From the NCBI GenBank assembly GCA_041602035.1, contig JBFIHA010000007.1, forward strand, positions 86,720 to 150,719: DNA of 64,000 nucleotides. The letters run 5' to 3'. The stretch is from Gemmatimonadales bacterium (GTDB lineage Bacteria; Gemmatimonadota; Gemmatimonadetes; Gemmatimonadales; GWC2-71-9). Shown piece after piece: positions 4,432 through 34,974 of this stretch. Positions within the stretch are counted from its first letter, which is position 1. Every line of letters starts with the position of its first letter. Below the pieces are notes generated by a model. It was given only the letters and a program-made list of their open reading frames with translations. It was not told where the DNA came from and searched no databases. A program made the position numbers and the translations under genes.

Positions 4432-4467
4432 GCAGGGGACAGGCGGGTTGAACACGCAGAACGGTGA

Positions 4468-11292: not shown

Positions 11293-11372
11293 GGATGCGA
11301 TGCGATATCTGCCAGCCGGGGCCCGATGTCAAGCGTGAGACATCGGACCCCGGGTGGTCAACTCCGGCATCG

Positions 11373-14096: not shown

Positions 14097-14301
14097 GTCG
14101 GAGTCGCCTCCTGCGAGATCGGTTCTTGCCCACTGTACGGGCTGGTGGGAAGGGTGGTTTCGCCTGTTAGATCCTCTTGACCGCGAAAGGGTTGCGGGGT
14201 ACGGGCGCCGTCGGCCGGGCCCGTGCTTGACCTGTGACGCCAAGCTGTATTGTTTCAAACACTTACGAGGCCACTGGCCCGATCATGGGAAGAACGGCGA
14301 A

Positions 14302-16926: not shown

Positions 16927-16934
16927 GACGAGTC

Positions 16935-18707: not shown

Positions 18708-18719
18708 CCGGGAGCACGC

Positions 18720-20465: not shown

Positions 20466-20500
20466 GAGGGCCCGTGGCCACCGTCCCAGCACCCGGCGAC

Positions 20501-21646
20501 ATGCGGCTGCAGCGTCCTGAGGTTGATCTCGACTACATCCTTGAGACGCTCCATACGCTGCTCGACATCCCCAGCCCCTCGGGGTACACGGACCAAATCG
20601 TCCACTGGGTCGGCGAGGAGCTCCAGCGACTGGGCGTACCGTTCGAGCTCACGCGACGCGGCGCGATCCGGGCCGATCTCTCCGGGCGGTTACGCAGCCC
20701 GGACCGCGCCGTGGTCGTCCACCTGGACACCCTCGGCGCCATGGTCCAGCGGATCAAGCCCAACGGCCGCCTGGCGCTCGCGCCCATCGGCAACTGGTCC
20801 GCTCGATTCGCGGCGGGCGGGCGGGCGACGCTGATGACCGACACGGGGTGCCGCCGCGGCACGGTGCTGCCGCTCAAGGCGTCGGGACACACGTTCGGCG
20901 ACGAGGTGGACCGACAGCCCGGCACGTGGGATCGGGTGGAGCTGCGCTTGGACGATCCGGTGGACAGCGCCGCGGACCTGGAACCCCTGGGCGTCAATGT
21001 GGGCGACTACGTCGTGTTCGACCCCGGCACCGAGTTCATGGCGGACACGGGATTCATCAATGCCCGCCACCTGGATGACAAGGCAGGAGTCGCCGTGCTG
21101 CTGGGTGCCACGAAGGCGTTGCGCGAAACCGGCGCCAAGCTGCCGCTGGACTGCCACCTCATCTTCACGATCAGTGAGGAGGTGGGGTCGGGGAGCTCCC
21201 ACACCCTGCACGGCGACGTCGCCGAGATGGTGACGATCGACAGCGCACCCCAGGCACACTGGAAGAACTCTCGAGAGGACGCCGTCACCATCGCTATGAT
21301 GGACTCGGCGGGTCCCTTCGACTGGCATCTCACCCACAAGCTCATCGACCTGTGCCGCGACCACGACATCCCCCATCGGCGGGACGTGTTCCAGTACTAC
21401 CGCTGCGATAGCGCCTCGGCGGTCGATGCCGGCAACGATCTCCGCACCGCATTGGCCTGCTTCGGGGTCGATGCCTCCCACGGCTGGGAGCGGACCAACA
21501 TCCGGAGTCTCCAGGCTCTCGCCGAGTTGACTGTGCTCTACATACTGAGCGAGCCGACCTTCATACGAGATCGGGACGAGCTGGCCACACTCGAGGGCTT
21601 CTCCCAGCAGCCGACGGGGCCCGCGGAGCTTCCTGGCGGGCCGTGA
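20501..21646 (+). CDS. M42 family peptidase of the NAGGN osmoprotectant system
   Basis: ORF 20474..21646. The ATG at 20501 gives MRLQRPEVDLDYILETLHTLLDIPSPSGYT, a typical M42 N-terminus. It is the third member of the conserved asnO-ngg-peptidase trio. Confidence 0.8.
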   Translation: MRLQRPEVDLDYILETLHTLLDIPSPSGYTDQIVHWVGEELQRLGVPFELTRRGAIRADLSGRLRSPDRAVVVHLDTLGAMVQRIKPNGRLALAPIGNWSARFAAGGRATLMTDTGCRRGTVLPLKASGHTFGDEVDRQPGTWDRVELRLDDPVDSAADLEPLGVNVGDYVVFDPGTEFMADTGFINARHLDDKAGVAVLLGATKALRETGAKLPLDCHLIFTISEEVGSGSSHTLHGDVAEMVTIDSAPQAHWKNSREDAVTIAMMDSAGPFDWHLTHKLIDLCRDHDIPHRRDVFQYYRCDSASAVDAGNDLRTALACFGVDASHGWERTNIRSLQALAELTVLYILSEPTFIRDRDELATLEGFSQQPTGPAELPGGP

Positions 21647-21921
21647 GGCAGCGCTGCACCGTGGCGAGTTACGACACATTCCTGTTGCGGATCGACCCTG
21701 TCGTGCTCGAGGCTGTGAGACGCTGGGCCGGCCAAGATCTCAGGAGTGTCAATCGCCAGATTGAGTTCCTCTTGCGTGAGGCTCTGCTGCAGACCGGACG
21801 CCTGGACCCGCATCATCGGCACGTCGCGAGGCGGGCGAACGATCAGCCGAATGGCCGCGTAGGCTACACGGCCGATGACCGGGACGAGGATGATGGCAGG
21901 ATGGAGGGAGCTGAGCGATGA
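21643..21921 (+). CDS. Arc/ribbon-helix-helix DNA-binding protein (HicB/CopG-like)
   Basis: FLLRIDPVVLEAVRRWAGQDLRSVNRQIEFLLREALLQTGRL matches the common Arc-like RHH pattern. The start is uncertain: GTG at 21643 overlaps the peptidase stop, and another GTG is at 21661. Confidence 0.55.
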   Translation: MRQRCTVASYDTFLLRIDPVVLEAVRRWAGQDLRSVNRQIEFLLREALLQTGRLDPHHRHVARRANDQPNGRVGYTADDRDEDDGRMEGAER

Positions 21922-22212
21922 GACGCCACGTCGATGCCTATGGCGCCACAGACGCCGGCAACACACGCACGCGGAACGAGCATCAGTTCTTGGTCGCTGA
22001 TCGCTCCCGAAGTGCGGCAGGTCGCCCCGGGTGCCGGCGATACGATTCCCCTGTGCACCGATGGGCTCACGTGCGAGGTACCCGAGAGTCAGATCGTTGA
22101 CATCCTCGTGCGCCGGGGCTCGGCTCAGGCGAAGTGCGCTGCGCTAATCGATGCCGCCAACCGAGCCGGCCGCTCCGACAACGTCACGGTGGTTGTGGTA
22201 CGACTGACTTGA
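21918..22212 (+). pseudogene. PP2C-type Ser/Thr phosphatase remnant (internal deletion plus frameshift)
   Basis: Frame 21918 encodes a PP2C N-terminus (GATDAGNTRTRNEHQFLVAD). Frame 21934 encodes the C-terminus (LCTDGLTCEVPESQIVDIL...AANRAGRSDNVTVVVVRL). The central catalytic part (roughly 150 aa) is missing. Confidence 0.65.
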
Positions 22213-22285: not shown

Positions 22286-22717
22286 TCAGGCGCCGCCCCG
22301 GATGACCCCCTGGATCTCCCGCAGGATGGCTGTCTCGCGGGGCCTCTTGGTCACCATCTGCCGGAGCCGCTTCTCGGTGAAGTGGGCCCGAACCCGGGCG
22401 TCGGCTGAGTGCTCCCGGAGGGCGGCCAGGACGCCCTCGGGTAGCTCGAGGACCTGCAGCACTCTGGCAATCCGCGAGTGGTCCTCCCCGGTAGCCCTGG
22501 CGAGGGCTCGAATGCTGCGGTAGTCGTTGTCCGCCATCAACCGGCGGTAGCGCTCGGCGCGCTCCCAGGCTGGCTCTTCGGCCATCCGGTTCTGGTAGGC
22601 CCGCCACGCGCGGCCGTGCATGGGCCGATCGCCCTTGACCCCTTGAGGGGCCTCGCCGCTGATCAGGGCCCGGCGGCGGTTGCGGTAGACCGCGAAGTAG
22701 TTGTCGATTAGGATCAT
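22286..22717 (-). CDS. hypothetical protein with ParB-like HTH segment
   Basis: ORF 22286..22747. SIRALARATGEDHSRIARVLQVLELPEGVLAAL resembles the ParB/Spo0J HTH. No ParB N-terminal nuclease-like domain is visible. Confidence 0.5.
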   Translation of the reverse strand: MILIDNYFAVYRNRRRALISGEAPQGVKGDRPMHGRAWRAYQNRMAEEPAWERAERYRRLMADNDYRSIRALARATGEDHSRIARVLQVLELPEGVLAALREHSADARVRAHFTEKRLRQMVTKRPRETAILREIQGVIRGGA

Positions 22718-22808
22718 AGCCGGGGGACGGTCCGGGGCCTCCTCCATTTCGGGGTTCCACGCCAGGACGGTGTGGTGGTGGAGGTCGAGTCTGGCAAGGG
22801 ACCCTGAA

Positions 22809-22862
22809 GGCGGTAGGGCGGTAGGACGGTATGGGGGCAGGCTACCGCCCTACCGTCCGACC
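22809..22862. repeat. GACGGTAGG-type imperfect palindrome (member H0)
   Basis: GGCGGTAGGGCGGTAGGACGGTA (22809-22831) faces TACCGCCCTACCGTCCGACC (22843-22862), just upstream of tRNA-Trp. Confidence 0.6.
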
Positions 22863-22878
22863 GACGTCCCGCCATTAG

Positions 22879-22951
22879 AGGTCCGTAGCTCAATTGGCAG
22901 AGCACCGGTCTCCAAAACCGGGGGTTGCAGGTTCGAGTCCTGCCGGGCCTG
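22879..22951 (+). tRNA. tRNA-Trp: tRNA-Trp (anticodon CCA)
   Basis: AGGTCCGTAGCTCAATTGGCAGAGCACCGGTCTCCAAAACCGGGGGTTGCAGGTTCGAGTCCTGCCGGGCCTG. The acceptor AGGTCCG pairs with CGGGCCT. The anticodon loop is CTCCAAA. The T-arm is GCAGG-TTCGAGT-CCTGC. Confidence 0.92.
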
Positions 22952-22958
22952 TTGCGAC

Positions 22959-22987
22959 AAGGCCGCGCCATCGGCGCGGCCTTTGTC
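22959..22987 (+). terminator. stem-loop terminator after tRNA-Trp
   Basis: GGCCGCGCC (22961-22969) pairs with GGCGCGGCC (22973-22981) across a 3-nt loop, followed by TTTGT. Confidence 0.6.
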
Positions 22988-22997
22988 GTACAGACCC

Positions 22998-23078
22998 GCA
23001 GACTCGCTCTAACCGTCGGCGCGTCCGCTGCCGCGCACTCGCCGCCGCTTGACGAGTCGGGTCCTTGCCGCGGCCCTT
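22998..23078 (+). repeat. ~80-bp direct repeat R2, copy A
   Basis: GCAGACTCGCTCTAACCGTCGGCGCGTCCGCTGCCGCGCACTCGCCGCCGCTTGACGAGTCGGGTCCTTGCCGCGGCCCT. About 90% identical by eye to 33807-33886. It ends in a degenerate copy of the tRNA-Trp 3' 17-mer. Confidence 0.7.
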
Positions 23079-23454
23079 GTCGTTGCGGCCCGGCAGTCTC
23101 GTTGACCTCGTCGCTCGCTCGTGCTCGCGACGTCGGTTCGAGTCCTCGAAGGACTTCTTTCGCCCAGGCTATGTCCGCGGCTCGTCGCGTACAGGCACCG
23201 ACAGTCTCCGCTCTTACCGGGGCTCCGTCTGCTTTCGCGCACGGTGACACCGGTTCGCGACCTGCATTCGAACTCAATCGTCGGTACCCAACGTTTCGTT
23301 GCTTGTGCTGCGCCGCTGCGTAACGGCTACATGCAACAGCAGAAGCGCGGTCACGGATTGTCCAGCCACTCCCCGATGCACCCCACGGACTCATGTGCCG
23401 GGGTGAGGAAGTCGACTCGCAGAAAACGACCGGGCCGCGGCTGACCCCGGGTCC

Positions 23455-24015
23455 CTAACCGGAGGCGGCAGGGGAAATGATGATCCCACGCAACTCCACG
23501 GTAGGATTCGCTGGGTTGCAGACGCTTTGTCCAACTGGGGTCGCTCCGGCTGTGAACTTGATCGTCATCCCATGAAGCTCGCCTGTTCCATGTCCGACGC
23601 CCCGGCCGAGCCCAGGAACGCCACCGATGACTTCCACTGTTTGCCTGATTTCCCAGGTGCCGTCGACCGCGTCGGGCCTGACAGTGACCGCAAGGTGAGC
23701 GTGCCCGTTTCCAGTTCTGTTGATGTTGACATCCACGACATTTTCCTCGGAACCATCAACAAGCGGGTTGCCGGTGACCCATTCGTTGCGGTTTCTGGCG
23801 CCTTGGACATGCAGTGTACCGCCGGGGGTGATCTTGACGCCATCTGGCGCGAAGCTCTCGCAGAAGTTGATGAAACCCTCGAACTCCGTGCGCGTGGCGG
23901 CCGCGGCCGACAGCAGCGGCGAGACGTCCGTCACAGCCGTCGGGCTTGTTGCCTGGTCCGCGCACGCGCCGAAGGCAGCGAGGAACGTCACGGCCGCGAG
24001 AATCTGGTAACGCAT
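23455..24015 (-). CDS. hypothetical secreted lipoprotein, paralog A
   Basis: Internal ATG (24015) of ORF 23455..24177 gives MRYQILAAVTFLAAFGAC. It shares motifs such as KITPGGTLH, RPDAV.GTWEIR and GVGHGTGELHGMTIK with the neighbouring gene. Confidence 0.7.
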   Translation of the reverse strand: MRYQILAAVTFLAAFGACADQATSPTAVTDVSPLLSAAAATRTEFEGFINFCESFAPDGVKITPGGTLHVQGARNRNEWVTGNPLVDGSEENVVDVNINRTGNGHAHLAVTVRPDAVDGTWEIRQTVEVIGGVPGLGRGVGHGTGELHGMTIKFTAGATPVGQSVCNPANPTVELRGIIISPAASG

Positions 24016-24062
24016 CTTTACCTCCGTGTTAGGATGTTCAGGTTTGTCACTGCGTGGGGGAC

Positions 24063-24074
24063 CATTTCGAAATG
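24063..24074. promoter_or_regulatory. perfect 12-bp palindrome CATTTCGAAATG in the leader of paralog A
   Basis: Lies about 48 nt upstream of the ATG at 24015. A near-identical site sits at the equivalent position upstream of paralog B. Confidence 0.35.
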
Positions 24075-24154
24075 CGACGAGTGGGAGTGCATGCAGGCTC
24101 TGCTTCCCCGCAACGACGCGCTCGAAACCATCGGGCGGTGGCTGACGCTGAGCC

Positions 24155-24712
24155 CTAGCCGGAGGCGGCAGGAGCAATGATCGTCACATGCACTCTCGAA
24201 CTGGGATTGCTTGGGTTGCACACGTTTTGTCCCTGCGTGTGAAAACCTTCTCCCCTGACCTTGATGGTCATGCCGTGAAGCTCGCCTGTTCCATGTCCGA
24301 CGCCCCAACCACCCATACCGATTCGCACTTGGTTCCTGATTTCCCAAGTGCCTTCGACTGCGTCGGGCCTGAGGGTGCGTACACCATGAGCGCGGCCGTC
24401 TCCAGTGTTGAGGTTGATGTTGGCGTCCCCGACAATTTCCTCGAAACCGTCCAGCAGCGGGTGGCCGAAAACCCACTGGTTCCAGTTTCCGGCTCCTCTG
24501 ATGTGTAGCGTTCCACCGGGGGTGATTTTGATGCCGTCTGGCGGCGTGCTCCCGCAAGCGTGCACTAAACCATCGACCTCCGTGCGTTGGGCGGCCTCTA
24601 CCGATAACAGCGGCATTATCTCCGTCACAGCTGTCGGGCTTGTCGACTGGTCCGTGCACGCCCCGACGGCACCCAGGAACGCCACGGCCGGGATGAGAAT
24701 CTGGTAACGCAT
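24155..24712 (-). CDS. hypothetical secreted lipoprotein, paralog B
   Basis: Internal ATG (24712) of ORF 24155..24787 gives MRYQILIPAVAFLGAVGAC. Roughly 55-60% identical to paralog A by eye, with the same C-terminus (PAASG). Confidence 0.7.
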   Translation of the reverse strand: MRYQILIPAVAFLGAVGACTDQSTSPTAVTEIMPLLSVEAAQRTEVDGLVHACGSTPPDGIKITPGGTLHIRGAGNWNQWVFGHPLLDGFEEIVGDANINLNTGDGRAHGVRTLRPDAVEGTWEIRNQVRIGMGGWGVGHGTGELHGMTIKVRGEGFHTQGQNVCNPSNPSSRVHVTIIAPAASG

Positions 24713-24758
24713 TTTGACCTCCGTGTCAGGGATGTTCAGGTTGGTCGCTGGTAGGGAC

Positions 24759-24770
24759 CATTCCGAAATG
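24759..24770. promoter_or_regulatory. near-palindrome CATTCCGAAATG in the leader of paralog B
   Basis: Lies about 47 nt upstream of the ATG at 24712. It sits inside a ~65-nt leader conserved with paralog A (GGACCATT.CGAAATGCGACG, GATGTTCAGGTT). Confidence 0.35.
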
Positions 24771-24954
24771 CGACGCGCGCGGGTCACCGGCTAACCACTC
24801 CGACATCGGAAGTAGCACACGATCCTCCGAATGGCTGCGCTACAACTAGCCGGCCGGCTGCGGTGGTTCATTGACGCGGAGTGGTGCCGGGATATTCTTG
24901 CGTGGGGCGATCAATTCGTCGTTCTGCGCAGTCAGCCGAGAGTCAACTCCGCCG

Positions 24955-27816
24955 ATGTACCATCTCCGCACGTTGGGAACCGCGCGCTTGGAAGGGCCTA
25001 GTGGCCCGTTGGGAGGCAGGGTCGCGCGGCGCCACCAGCTCGCGCTGCTCGCCCAGCTCGCCGTGGCCCGGGGCCACACCCTCACCCGCGACAAACTCCT
25101 CGCCTACCTCTGGCCGGAAGCGAACAACAACCGGGCGCGCCATCGGCTGAACGTGGCGGTGCATGAGGTTCGCCGGGCGTTGGGCGCGGACGCGATCGTT
25201 TCCCTGGTCGACGATCTACGTTTGAACACGGATGTCGTAACGAGCGATGTTGCCGAGTTCGAGGCCGCGGTGAGGACCGGCGAGTTGGAGCGCGCGGTGG
25301 GACTGTATGGCGGGCCGTTCTTGGATGGGTTTCATCTCAGGGGGGCGCGGGAGTTCGACGCCTGGGCGAGCGAGGTGCGGGAGCGGCTGTCGGGTCGCTA
25401 CGCCAATGCACTGGGGCAGCTGGCTAGCGAAGCGCGGGAGCTGGGCAACGGAGGGAGCGCGGTCCGTTGGTGGCAGGCGCTGGTGGCCCACGAGCCGTAT
25501 CAGGCCGACGCCGTGAATGGGTTGATAGAGGCGCTGGTGGCTGTGGGTGATCGGGCGGGGGCGCTGGAGGCGGGTAGCGCCTACGCCCGACGAGTGACGC
25601 GCGATCTAGCGATGGAGCCAGACGTCAAGGTGGTGGCTCTGTTAGAACGGGTGCGCTCAGAGAATCCGGAACCGGTTGCAGGCGGCACCGCCGTCGTGAG
25701 CGGGCCGACGGGGTCGGCGATATCACCCGAGCTCACCGCTTCACGCGTGCAGGGGCGCGACCAGGCCACGGCTCCGCGGCCCGTTACGCGTGGCCGGCAG
25801 CTCTGGTCGACGGCTCTGCACAGCCGGTGGATCCGTACGGCGGGTGTGGCGGGAGCGATCGCCATGGTTGCTGTTGGCGCTCGCATGTGGGTACACCAGT
25901 CGCAAGTCCGCTGGGCGCGAGACGTGGCGCTCCCCGCCGCGGCCCGACTCGTGGACGAGGGGCGGACGTATGCGGCGTACCGGTTGTTGCGGGAAGCTGA
26001 GGCGTACGTGCCGGATGATCCGATCCTCGAGGAGCTGCTGCTCGAATCCGCCACGCGCGTTAGCATTCGCTCCACGCCACCGGGCGCCCAGGTGTATGCC
26101 CGCGATTTCCTCGATGAACCGCACGCCTGGGAGCTCCTGGGCTCCACACCCCTGGACGCGGTACGCCTCCCGTGGGGCCACCTGGTGTACAGGATCTCGC
26201 TTGAAGGCTTTCAGCCCAGGGAGGGGCTGGTGTTCACGCAGGCTCGGGCGCTGGACTTCTCCCTGCAGCCGGCCAACGAGGCTCCTGCGAACATGGTGCA
26301 TGTGCCCGGCGGGAACTACGAGTTCTTCAAGCAGCAAGCCGACCTCGACGACTTCTGGATCGACCAGTACGAGGTGACCAACCGGCAGTTCAAGGTGTTC
26401 GTCGATCAAGGCGGATACGACAGACGTGAGTTCTGGCCTGAGCCAGTCGTCAACGACGGCACCGACTTTGGTTGGGACGAAACGCGGGCGTTGTTCCTTG
26501 ACCGGACGGGCCGGCCAGGGCCCGCCACGTGGGAGGTGGGTGCCTACCCTGACGGGCGGGACGAGTATCCGGTCAGCGGAGTGAGCTGGTACGAAGCGGC
26601 GGCCTATTGCGCTTCGGTCGGCAAGCAGCTTCCGACCGCCTTCCACTGGTACCACGCAGCCGCTCTGGGTGGGGTAACGGAGTTCGTGCAGTTCAGCAAT
26701 TTCGATGCGACCGGCCCCACGACGGTGGGCCATCCCCTTCGGCTCGGATTCCATGGCACGTACGACATGGCCGGCAACGTCAAGGAATGGGTCTGGAACG
26801 AAGCGGACGACGCCAGGCGGTACGTCCTGGGTGGTGGCTGGCATGAACCCAGCTACCAGTTCAACACTCCCGATGCGCAGCCCCCCACGCGCCGGGAGCC
26901 CAGCTACGGCATTCGCTGCGCCAAGTATCGAGCGCCCCTGACTGTGGCACAGACTGCCCCCATCGCGACGCCGTTCCGCGACTACCGACACGAGACCCCT
27001 GTGAGTGACGAGGTGTTCGCAGTGTACAAGAGGTTGTACGAGTACGACCGGACACCTCTAGACCCCCAGGTAGACCCTGTGCGCGAGGAGTTCGAGCACT
27101 GGTCAGTGGAGCACGTGAGCTTCGCAGCAGCGTACAGCAACGAGCGGGTGCCGGCGCAGCTCTTTCTTCCGAAGAACGCGCGTCCGCCGTTTCAGGCGGT
27201 TGTGTGGTTCCCAGGTGGCGCGCCATTTGTCCAGCGGTCTTCGCCTGAGGGATCCTTCGGCGATGCATCCAGGTTCCTGTTCCTGGTCCGGAGCGGCCGG
27301 GCAGTGGTGCTCCCGGTTTACAGGGGCATGTACGAACGCCACATCGGGCCCATCTTCTTGCCGAACATTTGGCGCGATCTGATGATTCATGCGGCAAAAG
27401 ATCTCCGCCGCACCGTTGACTACCTCGAGACGCGGCAGGATATCGACGCACAGAAGCTTGCGTACTCCGGGATCAGCATGGGCGCGGCGGTCGGTCCGAT
27501 CATGACCGCCGTCGAGCAGCGCTTCCGAGCGAGCATCCTGTTCGGTGGTGGGTTGTACTCCCTTCAGCAACCGCCGGAGGCAGAGGCATTCCATTTCGTT
27601 CCCCGGGTCAAAGTGCCGACCCTCATGATCAACGGCCGGCACGACTTCTTCTTTCAGTATGAGACATCCCAGGTCCCGATGCTTGAGTGGTTGGGCACGC
27701 CCGACAAGCACCATGCGGTTTTCGAGTCAGGGCACGTGCCGACAGAGCGGCAAGAGGTCATGAAGGAAGCACTGGACTGGCTCGACCGGTTTCTCGGGCC
27801 GGTGGCCAGACGCTGA
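24955..27816 (+). CDS. multidomain protein: SARP/BTAD transcriptional regulator + TM helix + FGE-sulfatase (SUMF1-like) domain + alpha/beta-hydrolase (S9/DLH-like)
   Basis: ORF 24871..27816, with ATG at 24955 (MYHLRTLG). The N-terminus is an OmpR-like winged helix plus BTAD (LLAYLWPE...AVHEVRRAL...DVAEFEAAV). A TM helix follows (IRTAGVAGAIAMVAVGARMWV). The FGE motifs are FWIDQYEVTN, YPVSGVSWYEAAAYC, GNVKEWV and GIRCAK. The C-terminal hydrolase carries the nucleophile elbow GISMG. Confidence 0.8.
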   Translation: MYHLRTLGTARLEGPSGPLGGRVARRHQLALLAQLAVARGHTLTRDKLLAYLWPEANNNRARHRLNVAVHEVRRALGADAIVSLVDDLRLNTDVVTSDVAEFEAAVRTGELERAVGLYGGPFLDGFHLRGAREFDAWASEVRERLSGRYANALGQLASEARELGNGGSAVRWWQALVAHEPYQADAVNGLIEALVAVGDRAGALEAGSAYARRVTRDLAMEPDVKVVALLERVRSENPEPVAGGTAVVSGPTGSAISPELTASRVQGRDQATAPRPVTRGRQLWSTALHSRWIRTAGVAGAIAMVAVGARMWVHQSQVRWARDVALPAAARLVDEGRTYAAYRLLREAEAYVPDDPILEELLLESATRVSIRSTPPGAQVYARDFLDEPHAWELLGSTPLDAVRLPWGHLVYRISLEGFQPREGLVFTQARALDFSLQPANEAPANMVHVPGGNYEFFKQQADLDDFWIDQYEVTNRQFKVFVDQGGYDRREFWPEPVVNDGTDFGWDETRALFLDRTGRPGPATWEVGAYPDGRDEYPVSGVSWYEAAAYCASVGKQLPTAFHWYHAAALGGVTEFVQFSNFDATGPTTVGHPLRLGFHGTYDMAGNVKEWVWNEADDARRYVLGGGWHEPSYQFNTPDAQPPTRREPSYGIRCAKYRAPLTVAQTAPIATPFRDYRHETPVSDEVFAVYKRLYEYDRTPLDPQVDPVREEFEHWSVEHVSFAAAYSNERVPAQLFLPKNARPPFQAVVWFPGGAPFVQRSSPEGSFGDASRFLFLVRSGRAVVLPVYRGMYERHIGPIFLPNIWRDLMIHAAKDLRRTVDYLETRQDIDAQKLAYSGISMGAAVGPIMTAVEQRFRASILFGGGLYSLQQPPEAEAFHFVPRVKVPTLMINGRHDFFFQYETSQVPMLEWLGTPDKHHAVFESGHVPTERQEVMKEALDWLDRFLGPVARR

Positions 27817-28230
27817 ACCATTCTCTGAACAATGGGGAGCATCCGGCCCTTCCACGAGCAAACGCGCATCGCGCCGGAGCGAGGACCTGTGCATGCCAGT
27901 TAACAGGCGCAATGCTTCGCGTGGCTTGTGACCGTTCGCTAGAGGATCTTCGTTCGCTGCGTATGGCCTCAGTAGGGACCACTCTTTGCCCGTCCCCCCG
28001 GCAGGGCCAGTGCATCGGGCTGCCGGGATCGAGCGTGGATCACTTTCTAAGTTGGGCACATCCTGGGCACATCCACCCGCAGACAGACGCAACCAGACGC
28101 CAGTCAGGCGCAAAAGGCGCCCTCATCGCCTCGGCCATGCGCCCTCCCGTCCGCGGGTAGGGTCGAGGTCGCCTACTCGGCGGCGTCGATCCGGTGAACC
28201 ACCGTACCGGTCAGATCCGCAAACCATTTG

Positions 28231-28355
28231 CAAACCAACAGGAAGGGACAGGACAGTACGAGAGGGGACAGAACGGGACGAAAGGACCTGCCAAGTCAGT
28301 ACAGGGAGGGACTAAACGGGACCAGAAGGGACCAGACGGGATGAAGACCACCGAA
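28231..28355 (+). repeat. T-depleted purine-rich tract with phased GGGAC motifs
   Basis: Only 6 T in 125 nt by hand count. GGGAC starts at 28245, 28265, 28275, 28308, 28318 and 28328, which are multiples of about 10 nt apart. Includes the tandem GGGACCAGA(A/C). It abuts tRNA-Trp partial copy 1. Confidence 0.6.
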
Positions 28356-28397
28356 CTCCAAAACCGGGGGTTGCAGGTTCGAGTCCTGCCGGGCCTG
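28356..28397 (+). repeat. 42-nt duplicate of the tRNA-Trp 3' portion (copy 1, 42/42 identical)
   Basis: CTCCAAAACCGGGGGTTGCAGGTTCGAGTCCTGCCGGGCCTG is identical to 22910-22951. It lacks the 5' acceptor strand and D-arm, so it is not a tRNA gene. Confidence 0.9.
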
Positions 28398-28400
28398 TGA

Positions 28401-28523
28401 AGACAGACGGTAAGACGGTAGGTTGGTAGGACGGTAGGTGCGTCCGGGCTTCCTACTGTCTTTGTCGTTTACCGTCCTACCGTCGTACCGTCCTACCGTC
28501 CGTTGCGAGTCCTGCCGGGCCTG
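28401..28523. repeat. GACGGTAGG-type ~100-nt imperfect palindrome H1 plus flanking 17-nt tRNA-Trp 3'-end repeat
   Basis: The left arm GACGGTAAGACGGTAGGTTGGTAGGACGGTAGG faces the right arm TACCGTCCTACCGTCGTACCGTCCTACCGTC. The 17-mer GAGTCCTGCCGGGCCTG follows at 28507-28523. Confidence 0.8.
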
Positions 28524-28525
28524 TG

Positions 28526-28560
28526 AGCGCAAGTGCTCATGGTGCTTGCGCTTCTGTTAT
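28526..28560 (+). terminator. stem-loop followed by T-rich run
   Basis: AGCGCAAG (28526-28533) pairs with CTTGCGCT (28545-28552), followed by TCTGTTAT. This mirrors the hairpin that follows the genuine tRNA-Trp gene. Confidence 0.4.
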
Positions 28561-28943
28561 GGCCCTTTGTTACCCTGGGTGGGCGTCACAGTGGCCTGTG
28601 ACCGATTGCGTGACGCTCCCAGCATAGAATCCGGCCGAGCCACGCAACTCTCTCTCAGCAGTCCCACTCAGTGCTTGCGCCTCAATCGGTTACTGAATCG
28701 GCGTCGATGTGCTCGACACCCCGAACCGGGCACCCGGTTCCGCTGTCGTACGGCTCGCCTCGAATGGAAGGCGTGTTTTGACCTTGCAGCGTGCCCGACG
28801 TTGCCGTCGGCTGCAGAGCAGAAGAGCGTAGGGCGCTGCGCCTCCATCTGGGAGAGGCGACCGTCTACGCATTTGAGTTCCGTCCGGTGGCGCAGAGCGG
28901 CCCGGCCTAATTCGTCACTTCGGTCCGGCGCTTCGACTACCGG

Positions 28944-30260
28944 CTATCGCATGGGCGACGCCGTCGGTAGCGGATTCACCACGTCGAGGTGACTCAGAAG
29001 CACGAGCTCCCCAGTCGTCGCGACGTTGGTGTAGTCGTACTGGTCGAGGCCGTCGGGACCGACCACGATCGCCAACGGCGGAATGAGGATGACATCGTAC
29101 GTCTCGTGGGCCGTTTCGAATGCGAGCAGGTCGATGTTCATGGGGTCGGTCACGTCGTAGACCTTGAGCCCGGCCCGGCCGTCGCACACGAACAGCGTGG
29201 CGCCGTCAATCCCCAGACCGAAGGGTCCCTGCATCCCGTAGCTTTTGACCAGCAGCGGATTCGCGAGGTCGGTGATGTCCAGGATGTCGAGCTGATTCGC
29301 GCCTCCCCCGCACAAGCTTCCCGCCCGCAGTGTCACGTAGGCATAGTCGCCGTGGGCCACCACGGGATCGCAGGCGGTGACGTGTGCAAACGCGGAGAGC
29401 TTCGTCGGGTTCTCCGGGTTGGTGTTGTCGTATATGAACATCCCCGTGGTGGATCCAATGAACAGGTAATCCCCGTACGGAAAGATCGTTTCGATACCCC
29501 AGCCGACGTCGACCGTGCTCCAGAGACTGGGATTGCTGGGATCGTCAATCCGCACGAGCTGGATGTACGAATCGTGAAGGGCGTACAAGAAGGGTTCGAC
29601 AATGGTGAACCGGGCCATCGATCCGCCTGTGCCGGTCGCGCCTGAGCGGTTCCCGCCTGTGGGGGCCGCGATATCCCCCCCGCTCTCGAGCCCTACACCA
29701 AAGAAGTGGTCCGCGCGCACGCGCTCGATTCCCGTCTGCTCCCATCCCACGACGACGCCGATGCGCTCATCGGGAGTCTCGACTCGGCTGTTGGCGACGA
29801 AATTGTCCGCCATCCAGGGTGATGGGGTCTGATACGGAAAAGCGTCTTCTATCCGTGCGACCTCGACGGCATTCAGCGGGTCGGCGATGTCGACCGCGAC
29901 GAGGTCCACATAGCTGTCGGCGTACAGGGTGGTGCCCTGTATTGCCATGTCGACGTTCCCGGGGATCGGGATGAAGGCAATCTTCTGCGGCGAGGATGGG
30001 TTGGTGTTGTCGATGACGTGGATGCCCTTGTAGAGCTCGTTGATGTAGATGTAGCTGTCTTTGACGTAGATCTTGCCGGTGGTGTCGATAGCGACGGGGT
30101 CCACCGCCACGACCGGCGTTCGGAGCTCCGCATAACTGAGGTAGACCGGCGAGAACACCGGTACCTCCTGGTACTCTGTGCAACCGGTAACAACGAATCC
30201 TGTTGCCGCAACGCAACCAACCGCGGCGAAGACGGCCGACGCCATAAGGGATTTTCGCAT
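28944..30260 (-). CDS. LVIVD-repeat (beta-propeller) lipoprotein
   Basis: ORF 28944..30281. MRKSLMASAVFAAVGCVAATGFVVTGC is signal/lipobox-like. Repeated motifs of the GIHVIDNTNPSSPQKIAFI and LKVYDVTDPMNIDLLAFE type are present. Confidence 0.75.
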   Translation of the reverse strand: MRKSLMASAVFAAVGCVAATGFVVTGCTEYQEVPVFSPVYLSYAELRTPVVAVDPVAIDTTGKIYVKDSYIYINELYKGIHVIDNTNPSSPQKIAFIPIPGNVDMAIQGTTLYADSYVDLVAVDIADPLNAVEVARIEDAFPYQTPSPWMADNFVANSRVETPDERIGVVVGWEQTGIERVRADHFFGVGLESGGDIAAPTGGNRSGATGTGGSMARFTIVEPFLYALHDSYIQLVRIDDPSNPSLWSTVDVGWGIETIFPYGDYLFIGSTTGMFIYDNTNPENPTKLSAFAHVTACDPVVAHGDYAYVTLRAGSLCGGGANQLDILDITDLANPLLVKSYGMQGPFGLGIDGATLFVCDGRAGLKVYDVTDPMNIDLLAFETAHETYDVILIPPLAIVVGPDGLDQYDYTNVATTGELVLLSHLDVVNPLPTASPMR

Positions 30261-30780
30261 TTTCGCATGCTCCATGGTCACGCCTCCTGGCTTTCCGGAG
30301 TGACCTGAAGCCTGCTAGTCGGCTCCCGGAGGAGCCTCTCGCAGCCCGTATCACGCCTCATGCAGCAAGCTAGCAAGCTTCGGGTCACTATGGTTCGATT
30401 TGAGATTCGCGGTGAGGATTCCGCCAAAGCGCCACCCCTGTTCTCCCAAGGGTCGCTGGTAGCCTGCGTGAAGTCCCCACGTCCGGGTACGAGAGCAAAC
30501 GGAAGAGAGCGCATGGCGCCTCCCTGCCCGGTGGGCAGCTCCGGCCCCCAACACGCACTCCCCGGGGACACGTGGCCCGCCGCATCACCTTGTATGACCC
30601 GCCGCGGCCCCGAAGGGTCACATCACGGCGGGTGATTCATGGGATTCCCCGGGGCTGACCGCCCCGGGTTCAGGTGTGCTTCCCTTGAGCAGCCGGACGC
30701 GGGCATTGCTCGGACGCGTACCATAGCCAAGCTCGGTGACCGGTGTCGCAGACTGATCAAGCCCTATGTTGAATGGAGAC

Positions 30781-30888
30781 CGTCACAACTGACGTTTCCT
30801 CTGACGTTAGCCCATGCCGTACCCTTCGTTCTGGTGGGTATTGCGTCAGTGAATGACGCCTCTTGACGCCGTTTTGACGTAAGGGTAC
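30781..30888 (+). repeat. cluster of TGACG/CGTCA motifs bracketed by an 8-bp inverted repeat
   Basis: Motifs: CGTCA-N4-TGACG (30781-30794), CTGACGTT twice (30789, 30801), GCGTCA-N5-TGACGC (30843-30859), TTGACGCC and TTGACGTA. GTACCCTT (30829) faces AAGGGTAC (30881). The cluster abuts tRNA-Trp partial copy 2. Confidence 0.6.
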
Positions 30889-30890
30889 AT

Positions 30891-30932
30891 CTCCAAAACC
30901 GGGGGTCGCAGGTTCGAGTCCTGCCGGGTCTG
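30891..30932 (+). repeat. 42-nt duplicate of the tRNA-Trp 3' portion (copy 2, 40/42 identical)
   Basis: CTCCAAAACCGGGGGTCGCAGGTTCGAGTCCTGCCGGGTCTG has two substitutions relative to 22910-22951. Confidence 0.9.
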
Positions 30933-30934
30933 TG

Positions 30935-31057
30935 AAGAAAGACGGTAAGACGGTAGGTGGGTAGGACGGTAGGTGCGTCCGGGCTTCCTACTGTCTTTGT
31001 CGTTTACCGTCCTACCGTCGTACCGTCCTACCGTCCGTTGCGAGTCCTGCCGGGCCT
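30935..31057. repeat. GACGGTAGG-type palindrome H2 plus flanking 16-nt tRNA-Trp 3'-end repeat
   Basis: Nearly identical to H1 (GACGGTAAGACGGTAGGTGGGTAGGACGGTAGGTGCGTCCGGGCTTCCTACTGTCTTTGTCGTTTACCGTCCTACCGTCGTACCGTCCTACCGTCCG). GAGTCCTGCCGGGCCT lies at 31042-31057. Confidence 0.8.
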
Positions 31058-31091
31058 TTCAGAGCCGGGGACCCATCTCGATCATGGGCAC

Positions 31092-33689
31092 TTAACCGCC
31101 CACCTTGCGGCCTGTGGCATCACGGCCATTCTGATGCATTACGACGCCGGTCACCTCCCCCGACTGGTTCTTGGTAAATGTGAACTCCACCGGAGCTGTT
31201 CTTGAGTAGAACCTGGTCTCCGACTCGGCGTAGATCCGAGACTTCTCCTGCCCAGCCGGCTGAACCCATAACGTGCCATCCTCGAACGTCACGACGACCG
31301 AGAACCGCGACGAAAACTGGTACTCGCCGGTGTACGACACGAGAACGGTCGCGTCGACCTCGGCTTCAGCGCGCTCCGACACGGGACCCTTGCATTCCCG
31401 TCCCGACTCGATTTCGCTTTCGATCCGATTGAACTCCATCGCGTAGTTCGACACGTTGTCGTACTTCATCTCTCGCGCCATGTCGTACGCTTTGCTGTAG
31501 TTCGCTCTCGACTCCTCTGACCGACACAACACGCGATACGCGTCCCCGAGGTGGTTGAACACCCGCGCCGATCCGGGATGGAGCACCGCGTTGCGCTCCA
31601 ATTCCCGTACGGCGTCGTCCCAGCGACCTTCCCGCGCGTGCGTGCGCGCGGCGATGTCGGCCACGTCTTCATGCGGTACCACTCGATATCCAAACCGCTC
31701 GCTCAGCTCGGCGTAGTGGGCGTCAATCGTCGCCCAGCCTTCTCCGCCGGCTTGCGCCGCCAAGGTCGCGATGTCGGTAAGCTCCCAGCCAGCGAACAGC
31801 CAGGTCAGGCCGTCGCGAAGCGCGACATGTGCATCGGCCGAGCCACTGGAGAAGGTTCTGTCTCCACCGTACGACGCGTTCATCGATCCATCTCTACCCA
31901 CTGCGATCGTGCCGACCGATTCGTGAGGGCCCGCCGTCTGCGCATCTCCCACGAGTATCGTCAACGCGGCCGTGCGGTACTCGGCCGCGACCCATGGCCG
32001 CAGCTCGTCAGTGATGAACGCAGAAAAGACAGACCGTTGCGCGGCCGTGGGTGCCGGAGTATGCACGACGATGAGCCCAGGGGCGCGGCCGCGATCGGCC
32101 AGAGAACGCGCGACGCCGGAGGCCTGATGCAGCGCAGGCTCACCGTCGAGCACGACCATCACGGGGTACTGACTGGACATCGACAACTCGTATCCCTCGG
32201 GCGTCAGCGTCCGGAGCGAGCGCTCCTCGCCGAGAATCGCGGAAGTAATGCTGGCCTTCCGTCCGGGAAGCGACGCCCTCGCGCCCTCGGCTGCGGCTAG
32301 CGGGACACCGGCTGCGATGCGACGAGGTGCGCTGGTGCTCCGTCCGCCCTGGTGCAGGACCATGCCATTGACCGCGCCGGCGTCGTCTTTGGCAAACGAG
32401 ATCTGCGCATTCACGACGCGGGCAAAGAACCTCGTATCGGTCTCGGGGAAGATCGGGAACTTGTTCTGCCCGGTTGCCTGCGCGAAGAGGCCATCGTTCT
32501 CGAGCGTGATGGCAATGACGAAAGTCGGTCGCAGCTCGTACTCGCCGACGTAGGTCTCAAGAATGTCTTGGGGGACGAAGACTTCGATCCGATCGGCTAC
32601 CGGCGTGTCACTCACCGGGATGTCCGGGTTGATCAGATGTAACGCAATGTCCCGTGACGAGATCGGGTAGTTCGCGAGCATGACCGCGCCGACGCCGGCG
32701 TCCGGATCGAATCCAACGAACGCGCGGAAGCCCCGCGTGGCGCCCCCGTGGGTGATGATGCGTTTCTCACCAAACCTCATCACGTGCCAGTTGAGGCCGA
32801 TATCGGTGTTCTCGTCGACGGTACTCCGCACTTGGTACGCATCCCGCATCGACCGTTCGATCTGCGACGTCGGTGGACCGGTGTTGGCGGCCACGAAACG
32901 CAACATGTCTTCTGCATTGGACCGTAGAGCGCCCATCGCCGGGAGGTTGGGCCAGTTGCGGTAGGGAGCAGCGAGCCCCATCTCGTCGTGTCCGACCGTC
33001 ATCCACTCGCGCACCTCACCTTCGACCTTCGTGCTCGTTGTGTGCATCCCGAGGGGATCGAGGATCCTTTCCCTGAGCAGCTGTTCGTACGTTTGCCCGG
33101 TGGCGCGCTCGAGCACGTGGCCGAGTAACGCGACCGCGATGTTCGAGTACTCGTACTCGGCGCCGACATCGCGGCGCAGCTCGTGGCCCGAGAGAAACTC
33201 GTACAGCATGTCGATCGTGTACGTGGGGTACGCGCCGTCGCCGGTGGGAACCATGTTGGTCGGCATGCGCGTCAATGACGACCGGTGCGTGGCAATATCG
33301 AGCAACGTGATCTCGCGTCCGGGTCGGCTCGGGACAGTCACACTGTCAGGCAGGTACTTGGCGATCGGGTCCTCTAGAGCGACCTCACCGCGCGCGACCG
33401 CGTCCGCCAGCAGGATCCCCGTAAAGGCCTTGGTGATCGATCCGAGTTCGAAAACCGATTTAGGGCCGAGCGGCCGTGCACCTTCGCCGGCATCACCGTA
33501 GTAGACGATTTTCGTCGATCCATCGGCTTCCATGACGCCGAGCACTATCGCCATGCCGCTGTCGGCCTCGACGCGCTTTTCGATGAGTGCGGTCAGGTCC
33601 TCAGTCGACGGGAAATGTTGTGCGCTCGCGGCGGCGGGAAGCAGTATCGCGAGCAAGAAAAGGATGGTCAGTCGCGTTCGCTGCATCAT
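31092..33689 (-). CDS. serine hydrolase (class C beta-lactamase/PBP family) with esterase-like, TPR and two DUF3471-like regions
   Basis: ORF 31092..33935. The ATG at 33689 gives MMQRTRLTILFLLAILLPAAASAQ. The SxxK motif is GSITKAF. The upstream ORF extension is translated hairpin repeat and is spurious. Confidence 0.8.
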   Translation of the reverse strand: MMQRTRLTILFLLAILLPAAASAQHFPSTEDLTALIEKRVEADSGMAIVLGVMEADGSTKIVYYGDAGEGARPLGPKSVFELGSITKAFTGILLADAVARGEVALEDPIAKYLPDSVTVPSRPGREITLLDIATHRSSLTRMPTNMVPTGDGAYPTYTIDMLYEFLSGHELRRDVGAEYEYSNIAVALLGHVLERATGQTYEQLLRERILDPLGMHTTSTKVEGEVREWMTVGHDEMGLAAPYRNWPNLPAMGALRSNAEDMLRFVAANTGPPTSQIERSMRDAYQVRSTVDENTDIGLNWHVMRFGEKRIITHGGATRGFRAFVGFDPDAGVGAVMLANYPISSRDIALHLINPDIPVSDTPVADRIEVFVPQDILETYVGEYELRPTFVIAITLENDGLFAQATGQNKFPIFPETDTRFFARVVNAQISFAKDDAGAVNGMVLHQGGRSTSAPRRIAAGVPLAAAEGARASLPGRKASITSAILGEERSLRTLTPEGYELSMSSQYPVMVVLDGEPALHQASGVARSLADRGRAPGLIVVHTPAPTAAQRSVFSAFITDELRPWVAAEYRTAALTILVGDAQTAGPHESVGTIAVGRDGSMNASYGGDRTFSSGSADAHVALRDGLTWLFAGWELTDIATLAAQAGGEGWATIDAHYAELSERFGYRVVPHEDVADIAARTHAREGRWDDAVRELERNAVLHPGSARVFNHLGDAYRVLCRSEESRANYSKAYDMAREMKYDNVSNYAMEFNRIESEIESGRECKGPVSERAEAEVDATVLVSYTGEYQFSSRFSVVVTFEDGTLWVQPAGQEKSRIYAESETRFYSRTAPVEFTFTKNQSGEVTGVVMHQNGRDATGRKVGG

Positions 33690-33806
33690 TTGGGCGTGTC
33701 CGCGTGAGGGGTGTCTGCACTTGAATGTGCGTAGCACCCTTACGCGGTCAAGGCGTTGCGGTTTCGAGGAATTCGACCGAGGGACGGGGCGGGATGAAGG
33801 TGAGGC

Positions 33807-33886
33807 GCAGACTCGCTCTACCCGTCGGCTCGTCCGCTGTCGCGCACTCGCCGCCGGCTGACGAGTCGAGTCCTGCCGGGCCTGTG
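33807..33886 (+). repeat. ~80-bp direct repeat R2, copy B
   Basis: GCAGACTCGCTCTACCCGTCGGCTCGTCCGCTGTCGCGCACTCGCCGCCGGCTGACGAGTCGAGTCCTGCCGGGCCTGTG. It ends with a perfect copy of the 17-nt tRNA-Trp 3' end (33868-33884). Confidence 0.7.
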
Positions 33887-34006
33887 GAAATAGACGGTAC
33901 GACGGTAGGTCGGTAAGACGGTAGGTGCCCGCCATGCCCGCCGTCTTTGCTGTTTACCGTCCTACCGCCTTACCCTCCTACCGTCCGTTGGGAGTCCTGC
34001 CGGGCC
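33887..34006. repeat. GACGGTAGG-type palindrome H3 plus 15-nt tRNA-Trp 3'-end repeat
   Basis: GACGGTACGACGGTAGGTCGGTAAGACGGTAGG faces TACCGTCCTACCGCCTTACCCTCCTACCGTC. GAGTCCTGCCGGGCC lies at 33992-34006. Confidence 0.75.
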
Positions 34007-34009
34007 GGT

Positions 34010-34132
34010 GAGGACAGACGGTAAGACGGTAGGTGGGTAGGACGGTAGGTGCGTCCGGCTTCCTACCCTCTTTGTCGTTTACCGTCCTACCGTCGTACCG
34101 TCCTACCGTCCGTTGCGAGTCCTCCCCGGCGC
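34010..34132. repeat. GACGGTAGG-type palindrome H4 plus degenerate tRNA-Trp 3'-end repeat
   Basis: Close copy of H1/H2. The degenerate repeat GAGTCCTCCCCGGCGC lies at 34117-34132. Confidence 0.75.
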
Positions 34133-34200
34133 TTGACCGGGTCCGTTCCCGGGCACCACTATCTGACCAACACGCTCATCCCAAGGTGAAGGAGGGAGTC

Positions 34201-34686: not shown

Positions 34687-34834
34687 CCCCAGATCGGCGG
34701 GCGCTGGACGCCCGCCAAGCTCTTCGACGTCGTCGCTCGCCCCTGCTCGCGACATCGGTTAATGCTGGGCTTGGGTCGGGTGCTCCTCAGCGGCTGATGG
34801 GGCAGGCGCTGAGCCCTCGCCCCCTCATAGCTGC

Positions 34835-34868
34835 CGCCCTACCGTCCTACCGTTCTACCGCCTTTCGG
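34835..34868. repeat. half-copy (right arm only) of the GACGGTAGG-type element
   Basis: CCGCCCTACCGTCCTACCGTTCTACCGCC, with no matching left arm nearby. Confidence 0.5.
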
Positions 34869-34974
34869 GCCCGATATTTGCGCCTTTTTGGCAGGCAGGG
34901 CGGCGCGGAGCCGCGGCGTGGGGGAACGACTCGGCTCGCCCGATGGTACGATGGCAATCTGCCATACTGGTTGC

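Follow-up and report, generated by a model that had tools for sequence, protein, structure and literature searches.

The DNA described here is a window of 64,000 nucleotides (64 kb) from contig JBFIHA010000007.1 of a Gemmatimonadales bacterium, and its subject is an intact tRNA-Trp gene that is followed downstream by a series of partial copies of its own 3' end. The region is probably a tandem array of small islets that are flanked by attachment (att) sites and carry no integrase, similar to cis-mobilizable elements (CIMEs), with a second layer of rearrangement that has its breakpoints in the T-loop. An earlier interpretation made from the letters of this DNA (the sequence-only reading) had taken the direct repeats of the tRNA 3' end for att scars of serial site-specific integration. 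That view is supported by the boundaries of the copies, by a P arm of the phage attachment site (attP) type beside the first copy, by the recurrence of the same unit on two other contigs (L125/L126), by a parallel array at a tRNA-Met gene (L147), and by the decay of the copies with distance from the tRNA.

Partial copies of the tRNA-Trp gene

The tRNA-Trp(CCA) gene lies on the plus strand at 22879-22951, where ARAGORN and Rfam agree (69.6 bits). Its last 42 nt are repeated twice downstream, and self-comparison of the window bears out the positions and identities that the sequence-only reading gave for both copies. A weaker similarity of copy 1 reaches back to tRNA nucleotide 21 (22899-22952 versus 28345-28398, 94% over 54 nt).

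22879-22951, plus strand: intact tRNA-Trp(CCA), with the anticodon loop at 22910-22916 (CTCCAAA) and the T-loop at 22932-22938 (TTCGAGT)
28345-28397, plus strand: partial tRNA-Trp copy 1, in which tRNA nucleotides 32-73 match 42/42 (28356-28397) and the anticodon stem is broken
30891-30932, plus strand: partial tRNA-Trp copy 2, matching 40/42

Beyond the two 42-nt copies, five to seven copies of 17-19 nt lie on the same strand downstream of the tRNA. The 17-mer GAGTCCTGCCGGGCCTG was searched with a tolerance of up to three mismatches, with 100 shuffles as a control. It occurs seven times on the plus strand with at most one mismatch (22935, 28381, 28507, 30916, 31042, 33868, and 33992); the shuffles give an expectation of 0.66, and none of the 100 reached seven occurrences. 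The terminal 15-17-nt repeats that had been listed at 28507, 31042, 33868, and 33992 are among them. The degenerate copies claimed at 23056 and 34117 are also present, as is the decayed T-loop-like GGTTCGAGTCC at 23135.

The copies begin at defined points of the tRNA. Numbered from 22879, the 42-nt blocks start at nucleotide 32, the base that opens the anticodon loop; the short blocks have their start within the T-loop, at nucleotides 55-57. Crossovers at attachment sites in tRNA genes are placed at the anticodon loop, the T-loop, or the T/acceptor junction (Islander; PMC4383910), and the boundaries of the tRNA-Trp copies coincide with the first two of these recognised subsites. Downstream 3' fragments were found at only two of the 20 tRNA genes examined (tRNA-Trp here and the tRNA-Met of L147); there are none downstream of the tRNA-His of the window or of 17 tRNAs in other loci. 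The copies decay moving away from the tRNA, from 42/42 with an intact leader, to 40/42, to 19 nt with a leader remnant, and finally to a degenerate 17-mer. This gradient agrees with the oldest islet being furthest from the tRNA. The G+C content of the array is 0.60-0.64, below that of its flanks (0.65-0.70).

Self-comparison shows that every short copy is paired with another across a module of about 110 nt, so that a hairpin stands between two 17-mers. The hairpin arms consist of four GACGGTAG-type octamers opposite four CTACCGTC-type octamers. Units E1, E2, and E4 are mutually 94-96% identical, and E3 is 83-85% identical to them. The 175-nt block with copy 2 and E2 is 96% identical to copy 1 plus E1. 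The features of this second layer are as follows.

28381-28523, plus strand: unit E1, 17-mer, hairpin, 17-mer
28398-28523, plus strand: module E1, an octamer hairpin with arms 28407-28438 and 28468-28499, and the second 17-mer at 28507-28523
28524-28552, plus strand: terminator-like hairpin 3' of E1, with a 13-bp stem
30916-31058, plus strand: unit E2, 17-mer, hairpin, 17-mer
30933-31058, plus strand: module E2, an octamer hairpin and the second 17-mer at 31042-31058
33781-33884, plus strand: unit 3, made of a leader remnant GGGACGGGGCGGGATGAAG (33781-33799), segment A' (33806-33865), and a 19-nt tRNA end (33866-33884)
33868-34008, plus strand: unit E3, 17-mer, hairpin, 17-mer
33992-34133, plus strand: unit E4, 17-mer, hairpin, 17-mer
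33885-34133, plus strand: tandem of E3 and E4 with a period of 124, comprising two octamer hairpins, the shared 17-mer 33992-34008, and the degenerate 17-mer 34117-34133
34710-34872, plus strand: segment B' (34710-34760) and a lone octamer arm (34831-34872) that is inverted relative to 22799-22840; the probable distal limit of the array

The hairpin together with the second 17-mer behaves as an indel that is bounded exactly by the 17-mers, since it is in unit a of L125 and missing from units b and c of L126. The segmentation that had been proposed for this region holds in part: the islets are serial, while the 15-17-nt copies are not independent islet ends and belong instead to a T-loop layer around small non-coding modules. 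The terminator-like hairpin that had been noticed behind copy 1 does fold, at 28524-28552, and is interpreted as the point where the P' side of the next islet begins. On L125 (918-966) and L126 (1707-1754), 48 nt are inserted into the T-loop of the partial tRNA, exactly at the first position of the 17-mer: GGTTC[48 nt]GAGTCC. The last bases of this insertion (ACGCGTC) resemble those of segment A' (ACGAGTC). The insertion is a further sign of the T-loop as a recombination hotspot.

The intact tRNA plays the attL-like role, and its immediate flanks are built in a way that recalls the modules.

22807-22870, no strand: octamer-repeat hairpin (three GGCGGTAG and three CTACCGYC) immediately 5' of tRNA-Trp
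22955-22990, plus strand: terminator-like hairpin after the tRNA (self-inverted match 22934-23006)
22997-23075, plus strand: segment A, with the degenerate 17-mer 23056-23078 at its end; 90% identical to 33806-33882
23088-23138, plus strand: segment B, then GGTTCGAGTCC; 82% identical to 34710-34760

Next to the tRNA, the terminator hairpin and segment A (22952-23055) are followed by a degenerate 17-mer, which parallels the relation of a module to its two 17-mers. Segments A and B, which adjoin the tRNA, are both duplicated at the distal end of the array. Octamer arrays in the window are confined to these 12 kb (22807-22870, 28407-28499, 30942-31034, 33894-33984, 34018-34109, and 34831-34872), and the other 52 kb are without any. 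The arms at 22799-22840 and 34831-34872 were considered as an inverted repeat bounding the whole array, and this was dropped because they resemble each other essentially through the octamer array that both contain.

Independent short-read contigs confirm the junction between the leader and copy 1 (L145, 100%) and the whole unit at 33.8-34.2 kb (L116, 99.9%). Short-read contigs end inside the 175-nt repeats, and the order of the segments therefore depends on the source assembly. The contigs recovered by exact protein matches are all short-read assemblies of one population that break in the repeats, with no strain variants among them.

The attP-like arm and its counterparts elsewhere

Copy 1 is preceded by a leader with the architecture of an attP arm, and copy 2 by a different set of repeats.

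28216-28344, plus strand: attP-type P arm ('leader') of about 130 nt before copy 1
30781-30890, plus strand: left flank of copy 2, with TGACG at 30790, 30802, 30854, 30864, and 30875 and inverted at 30781 and 30844

The leader (CTGCAAACCATTTGCAAACC...GGGACCAGACGGGA) has two copies of TGCAAACC (28218 and 28229) that are 11 nt apart. These are followed by two clusters of GGGAC-type repeats with exact 10-nt spacing, one at 28245/65/75 and the other at 28308/18/28/38. No other phased run of at least three repeats exists in the 64 kb, and none arose in 200 resamples. Helically phased direct repeats beside a core typify the arm sites of integrases and the sites of excisionases, as in the attP of lambda and L5. 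Unit 1 has the composition of an attP, with a core identical to attB that is flanked by repeated arm-type sites. Copy 2 has no leader of this type, and its TGACG cluster, spaced 10-12 nt, forms a different P-arm-like set. In unit 3 the leader is reduced to the remnant at 33781-33799.

The unit recurs in a second array. L125 and L126 are two overlapping contigs that came from a metagenome scan for the junction of hairpin and 17-mer. They hold three serial units, each with a purine-rich leader of about 165 nt and a tRNA-like part, and their leader plus core is 87-96% identical to 28216-28397 of the window. Between the units stand genes for a beta-propeller protein and for a P-type ATPase, both unrelated to the cargo of the window; upstream there is a kinase fragment. 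The anticodon-stem mismatches CCGAA/ACCGG are conserved in them. An nhmmer model of the unit found no more leader copies in the other loci examined.

A phage contig offers a close structural parallel. Viral contigs were scanned with a 27-mer of tRNA-Trp reaching from the anticodon loop to the T-loop; five contigs matched, and the informative one is L152 (IMGVR_UViG_3300019858_000078, positions 2600-3956), a phage fragment with a terminase and a complete tRNA-Trp attP. Its P arm has two TGCAAATG spaced 11 nt apart and then two GGGCCGAAA. The core is a partial tRNA-Trp that starts exactly at CTCCAAAA, with the first base of the anticodon loop, and a terminator hairpin comes next. The P' arm has two TTGCAAATGA and is followed by a tyrosine integrase gene (PF00589, E 1e-20). 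Given this layout, unit 1 matches a bona fide tyrosine-integrase attP in its core boundary, in the sequence of its arm repeats, and in their spacing. The TGCAAATG pair of the phage corresponds to the TGCAAACC pair of the window at an equal 11-nt spacing, both have a second short repeat pair nearer the core, and in both the core runs from the first base of the anticodon loop and is followed by a terminator hairpin. L152 differs in carrying a terminase and an integrase and in having arm repeats, with paired TGCAAATG repeats, on both sides of the core; the window unit is without an integrase, and on the P' side of the window units no pair matching TGCAAACC occurs. The host of the phage is evidently a different one, as its sequence has a lower G+C content and another acceptor stem. 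L152 can serve as a template in the hunt for the missing integrase.

Other probes of mobile elements gave no match of this kind. The 22-mer of the tRNA-Trp 3' end, the anticodon-stem variant specific to the units, the leader, and the core of the L147 tRNA-Met each had 0 matches in viral contigs. A BLAST search of unit 1 against phage and plasmid collections returned only tRNA-Trp genes, over the tRNA-like 55 nt, and the leader and hairpin were unmatched.

A third array is anchored at a different tRNA. L147 (JGI 3300041077 Ga0452210_007605) carries the closest homologue of the SARP-FGE gene of the window (83% at the nucleotide level). It has a tRNA-Met(CAT) at 3348-3422 with partial 3' copies at 11083 and 14245, and the array spans 3348-14336. 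As at tRNA-Trp, the identity of the copies is perfect from the first base of the anticodon loop, and short blocks likewise start in the T-loop. Each copy comes after a leader of about 99 nt with two TGTAACAA and phased CCCACG repeats, and is followed by an insert and a second copy from the T-loop to the 3' end. The motif TGT[AC]ACA occurs six times in the 20.6 kb of L147, always in att flanks and on both the P and P' sides. No integrase is present among the called genes of these 20.6 kb. The SARP-FGE gene lies just left of an att leader both at the tRNA-Trp array and at the tRNA-Met array. The islets of L147 carry a TonB receptor, SARP-FGE, and a Ser/Thr kinase. To the right of its tRNA, 3673-3829 is 80% identical to the kinase gene start right of unit 1 of that array (11512-11668).

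Islet cargo, the missing recombinase, and the origin of the array

The islets are 0.6-5.4 kb in size and hold one to three intact genes each. The cargo of the array is as follows.

23455-24177 and 24155-24787, minus strand: islet 1, two paralogous genes with no family match (75% nucleotide identity)
24871-27816, plus strand: islet 1, SARP/BTAD-FGE-sulfatase-hydrolase protein, the gene with the homologue in L147
28838-28928, minus strand: FGE-sulfatase 3'-end remnant of about 90 nt beside the LVIVD gene; full-length gene in L141, remnant in L142
28944-30281, minus strand: islet 2, LVIVD-repeat lipoprotein
31092-33689, minus strand: islet 3, beta-lactamase-fold serine hydrolase with DUF3471, esterase, and TPR; also called in L116
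34201-34686, plus strand: DUF4440 lipoprotein gene between the last degenerate 17-mer and segment B'

The genes that had been named in the sequence-only reading (SARP-FGE-hydrolase, LVIVD lipoprotein, and serine hydrolase) are confirmed; the two genes of islet 1, which that reading took for lipoproteins, are paralogous as claimed and have no match in Pfam, NCBIfam, or PHROGs. A tandem duplication (23413-24079 versus 24114-24775, 75% at the nucleotide level) underlies this pair. Paralogues of the cargo also occur outside the array, with a second DUF4440 gene two genes downstream (36222-36695) and a second beta-lactamase/DUF3471 hydrolase 16 kb away (49674-51716). The LVIVD gene is found at 83-94% nucleotide identity in L141, L142, L144, and L153, in four different neighbourhoods and without tRNA units. 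The cargo thus consists of ordinary genes that occur in other contexts in relatives. The FGE gene has its full length at 11354-12265 of L141 and is cut to the same truncated remnant at 11425-11515 of L142. This remnant, with the SARP and kinase fragments of L147, points to deletion and patchwork. Beside the closest LVIVD homologue (L153, 94%), the translation of 2700-3238 contains LYRLIEDHCDEFS, which we take to resemble the N-terminus of an IS91-family transposase. Elements of this family are able to mobilise neighbouring genes.

Upstream of the array, a complete NAGGN osmoprotectant operon lies at 16755-21646 (asparagine synthase-like amidotransferase, GNAT/ATP-grasp synthase, and M42 peptidase). 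It is conserved at 73-83% nucleotide identity in relatives (L127-L129). Its homologues assign the organism to Gemmatimonadota, and the best named one is in a Gemmatimonadales metagenome-assembled genome (MAG; 87%). Three small features separate this operon from tRNA-Trp: an open reading frame (ORF) of Arc-like ribbon-helix-helix type (21643-21921), a PP2C phosphatase fragment from the C-terminus (21934-22212), and a small minus-strand ORF of ParB-HTH-like type (22286-22747). Synteny with relatives stops at 21628, directly after the M42 peptidase gene, which places tRNA-Trp itself in a variable region. In relatives with the M42 peptidase at 83-87% amino acid identity, synteny is lost after that gene and there is no tRNA within 10 kb, so no empty site can be defined.

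The recombinase was sought at several levels. In Pfam searches that covered all called genes, gap ORFs, and the larger intergenic ORFs, the 64 kb yielded neither an integrase or serine recombinase nor an excisionase or transfer protein, so that the lack of such genes in or beside the segments, which had been claimed before, extends to the entire window. NCBIfam and PHROGs scans of the unannotated window proteins gave no recombinase, and tblastn of the L152 integrase against the window gave no match. The non-coding gaps within the islets are at most about 600 nt and leave no room for an integrase pseudogene. A 230-aa ORF at 54566-55258 on the minus strand was considered as a protein similar to recombination directionality factors (PF18897) and was treated as noise, as it scored 17 bits against a cut-off of 23.6. 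As no recombinase was found, the enzyme is hypothetical.

The repeats, their exact boundaries, the architecture of the arms, the lack of any recombinase, and the recurrence elsewhere are observed, while the chemistry by which the DNA recombined, the sequence of the steps, and any mobility today are inferred. An incoming circular element would carry an attP whose core is the part of the tRNA between the start of the anticodon loop and the 3' end (nucleotides 32-73), together with a terminator of its own. A heterobivalent tyrosine integrase would exchange strands in the anticodon loop, and the crossover would rebuild the tRNA from element DNA and displace the old 3' part downstream. Repeated rounds would leave internal P-core-P' junctions, with the youngest islet beside the tRNA. 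In a second layer of events with a breakpoint in the T-loop, the last 17-19 nt would become duplicated around non-coding modules of about 110 nt, mostly octamer hairpins. The recombinase is not in the array, and the islets would thus be either decayed remnants or CIME-like elements that need an integrase in trans.

Several observations weigh against serial integration. There is no integrase, excisionase, or pseudogene remnant of one in the 64 kb, in L147 (20.6 kb), or in L125/L126. No empty site and no excised circle were observed, and no islet was seen moving as a unit in the loci compared. The short contigs L125 and L126 do not include the tRNA at which their array would be anchored. Close homologues of LVIVD (83-94%) and of SARP-FGE (83%) stand in unrelated contexts without tRNA units, and cargo homology stops 230-420 nt before the att repeats are reached. 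With their small size, intact genes, and well-kept att copies, the islets are oddly clean, which fits simple decay poorly. A module of about 125 bp is very small for integrase-mediated excision and integration, and the 94-96% identity among E1, E2, and E4 could be explained by gene conversion or unequal crossing-over as well as by insertion.

A first alternative is that the array is an active gene-capture platform with integron-like logic, where single-gene cassettes lie between attP-like junctions at a tRNA gene and are inserted, excised, and shuffled by a dedicated recombinase that is encoded elsewhere. It extends the chemistry of the preferred account to a more ambitious claim. We regard this as unlikely, and give the same low credence to the 17-mer-bounded hairpin modules being its mini-cassettes. 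Three independent arrays (the window, L125/L126, and L147) have no recombinase in reach, and the att units are 87-96% identical between organisms and 96% identical within the array, far above their surroundings. Moreover, the 0.6-5.4-kb islets hold one to three intact genes each, modules are gained or lost exactly at the 17-mers, E3 and E4 stand in tandem, and the SARP-FGE gene lies beside a P arm at two different tRNAs. However, the regions searched contain no recombinase, the orientation of the cargo is mixed, and a common promoter or an attI-like site is not evident. The homology limits of the cargo in relatives do not match the att sites, and gene remnants, namely the SARP and kinase pieces of L147 and the 3' end of FGE at 28838-28928, indicate decay and not clean cassettes. 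Just three arrays are known. It is similarly doubtful that Gemmatimonadota possess a tRNA-anchored gene-capture system with cassettes of one to a few genes between attP-like junctions, diverged sites at tRNA-Trp and tRNA-Met, a recombinase encoded elsewhere, and a second, T-loop-specific reaction that moves hairpin mini-modules of about 125 bp.

A recombinase-free origin is a more distant prospect, and we consider it improbable. Segmental duplication, unequal crossing-over, and gene conversion would build the array, with hairpins promoting slippage or breakage. The duplications of the flanks (A/A' and B/B') and of the islet 1 genes (23413-24079 versus 24114-24775) are of this kind, the repeat blocks are near-identical across 140-175 nt, and octamer hairpins are plentiful and break assemblies throughout the phylum, with their arrays clustered in these 12 kb of the window and none in the other 52 kb. 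Such processes leave unexplained why, in a phage attP as well as in two tRNA species, blocks start exactly at the first base of the anticodon loop or in the T-loop. They also do not account for the attP-type arm repeats beside the cores or for the unrelated cargo between conserved units in another organism.

The sequence-only reading also proposed that the partial copies serve as RNA processing or punctuation signals. Such a role as functional RNA, whether for RNase P or RNase Z or as terminator modules, kept for the expression of neighbouring genes, is very improbable. In its favour, a hairpin follows each unit, conservation of the units is high, and hairpins could terminate transcription both at E2, about 30 nt past the hydrolase stop, and at E1, between convergent genes. 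Against it, the copies have no 5' acceptor strand or D arm, and their anticodon stem is broken by the conserved mismatches CCGAA/ACCGG. At E<=1, no copy matches tRNA or any other Rfam family, and 0 of 52 hairpin pairs show a compensatory change. Cargo genes stand on both strands relative to the copies, and the leader is made of helically phased direct repeats as expected of protein-binding DNA and not of RNA structure. Among known RNA families the true tRNA is the sole match, and matches of the hairpins to miRNA precursors are spurious and below threshold.

Comparison with known systems

To our knowledge, such arrays have not previously been described in this phylum. With serial integration as the preferred account, the window gives a precisely mapped case, in a little-studied phylum, of accessory genes that accumulate at a tRNA gene without an on-board recombinase. 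The genes that have piled up here encode lipoproteins, secreted hydrolases, and signalling proteins. The 42-nt anticodon-loop class, the 17-nt T-loop class, the TGCAAACC pairs, and the phased GGGAC repeats are handles with which an integrase or a parental element can be sought. If the islets were moved in trans, the tRNA-Trp and tRNA-Met arrays would form a cassette-like platform for gene exchange that is distinct from integrons.

The octamer modules belong to a dispersed family of intergenic repeats of Gemmatimonadota, (GACGGTAG / GGTAGGAC)n, in which tandem octamers often form inverted pairs that give hairpins of about 100 nt. Octamer arrays were found at no fewer than 114 loci in the scan (at least 114), mostly in Gemmatimonadota MAGs and with many from one same MAG. 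Among the matches listed, they frequently stand directly after stop codons or at contig ends, and a few similar arrays occur in Bacteroidales, Chloroflexota, and actinobacterial records. The octamer sequence was not found in any paper by a text search of the literature. We regard the octamer hairpins as an undescribed, abundant repeat family that interrupts short-read assemblies of Gemmatimonadota. The modules resemble repetitive extragenic palindromes (REPs) and bacterial interspersed mosaic elements (BIMEs) in being short, abundant, intergenic, imperfect hairpins of varying copy number, often after stops. They are unlike these in being built of tandem 8-nt units, (GACGGTAG)n, in inverted arrays and in occurring mainly in Gemmatimonadota-like genomes. 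We know of no gene like the REP-associated tyrosine transposase (RAYT) for them. The hairpins are bracketed by the 17-mer in the window, whereas 16 hairpins elsewhere have no flanking direct repeat of more than 8 nt; for this reason a miniature inverted-repeat transposable element with target-site duplication was rejected as a general property of the octamer hairpin.

The array shares with integrons the placement of genes between repeated recombination sites, cassettes without a recombinase, and some sites with long imperfect hairpins. It differs in having no IntI, attI, or Pc, in the mixed orientation of its genes, and in sites that are tRNA-derived and carry arm-type repeats. There is no recombinase on either side of the array, and its sites are tRNA 3' fragments on which the hairpins are optional octamer arrays and not attC. 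Islander islands consist of a tRNA gene (tDNA) and a displaced, co-oriented 3' fragment, and tandem arrays among them number 125 of at least two and four of at least three (PMC4383910). The window has the tDNA, the fragment, and the boundary of this definition, but Islander requires an integrase gene per island, which the islets do not have.

The closest known cases are found at other target genes. Downstream of ssrA in Dehalococcoides, more than 12 co-oriented repeats of the tmRNA 3' end delimit islands in tandem (McMurdie et al., 2011; PMC3146451). Fifteen of the islands lack the integration module and were proposed to be cis-mobilizable, and the insertion point is in the T-loop (PMC3146451). 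Dehalococcoides differs in its serine (CcrB-like) integrase, in a conserved integration module of six genes that roughly half of the islands carry, and in a single class of 20-bp repeats, whereas the window has no recombinase in any islet, two repeat classes (42 nt and 17-19 nt), and tyrosine-integrase-like arms. CIMEs lie between attL and attR, no longer have genes for integration and transfer, and become stacked at the 3' end of the target gene when elements integrate at resident att sites (PMC5704250). Examples of CIMEs and accretion are ICESt1/CIME of Streptococcus thermophilus and the tRNA-Lys elements of S. agalactiae (PMC5704250). The islets have the structure of CIMEs, as they are att-flanked and without integration, excision, or transfer genes. 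CIMEs are known by homology to a parental integrative and conjugative element (ICE) or integrative and mobilizable element (IME), and their cis-mobilisation has been shown experimentally, whereas no parental element is known here; the islets of the window are also much smaller and have the additional T-loop layer. The kind of scar is one already known from Dehalococcoides ssrA and from streptococcal CIMEs, and here it is unusually compact, has two crossover layers, and occurs at two tRNAs.

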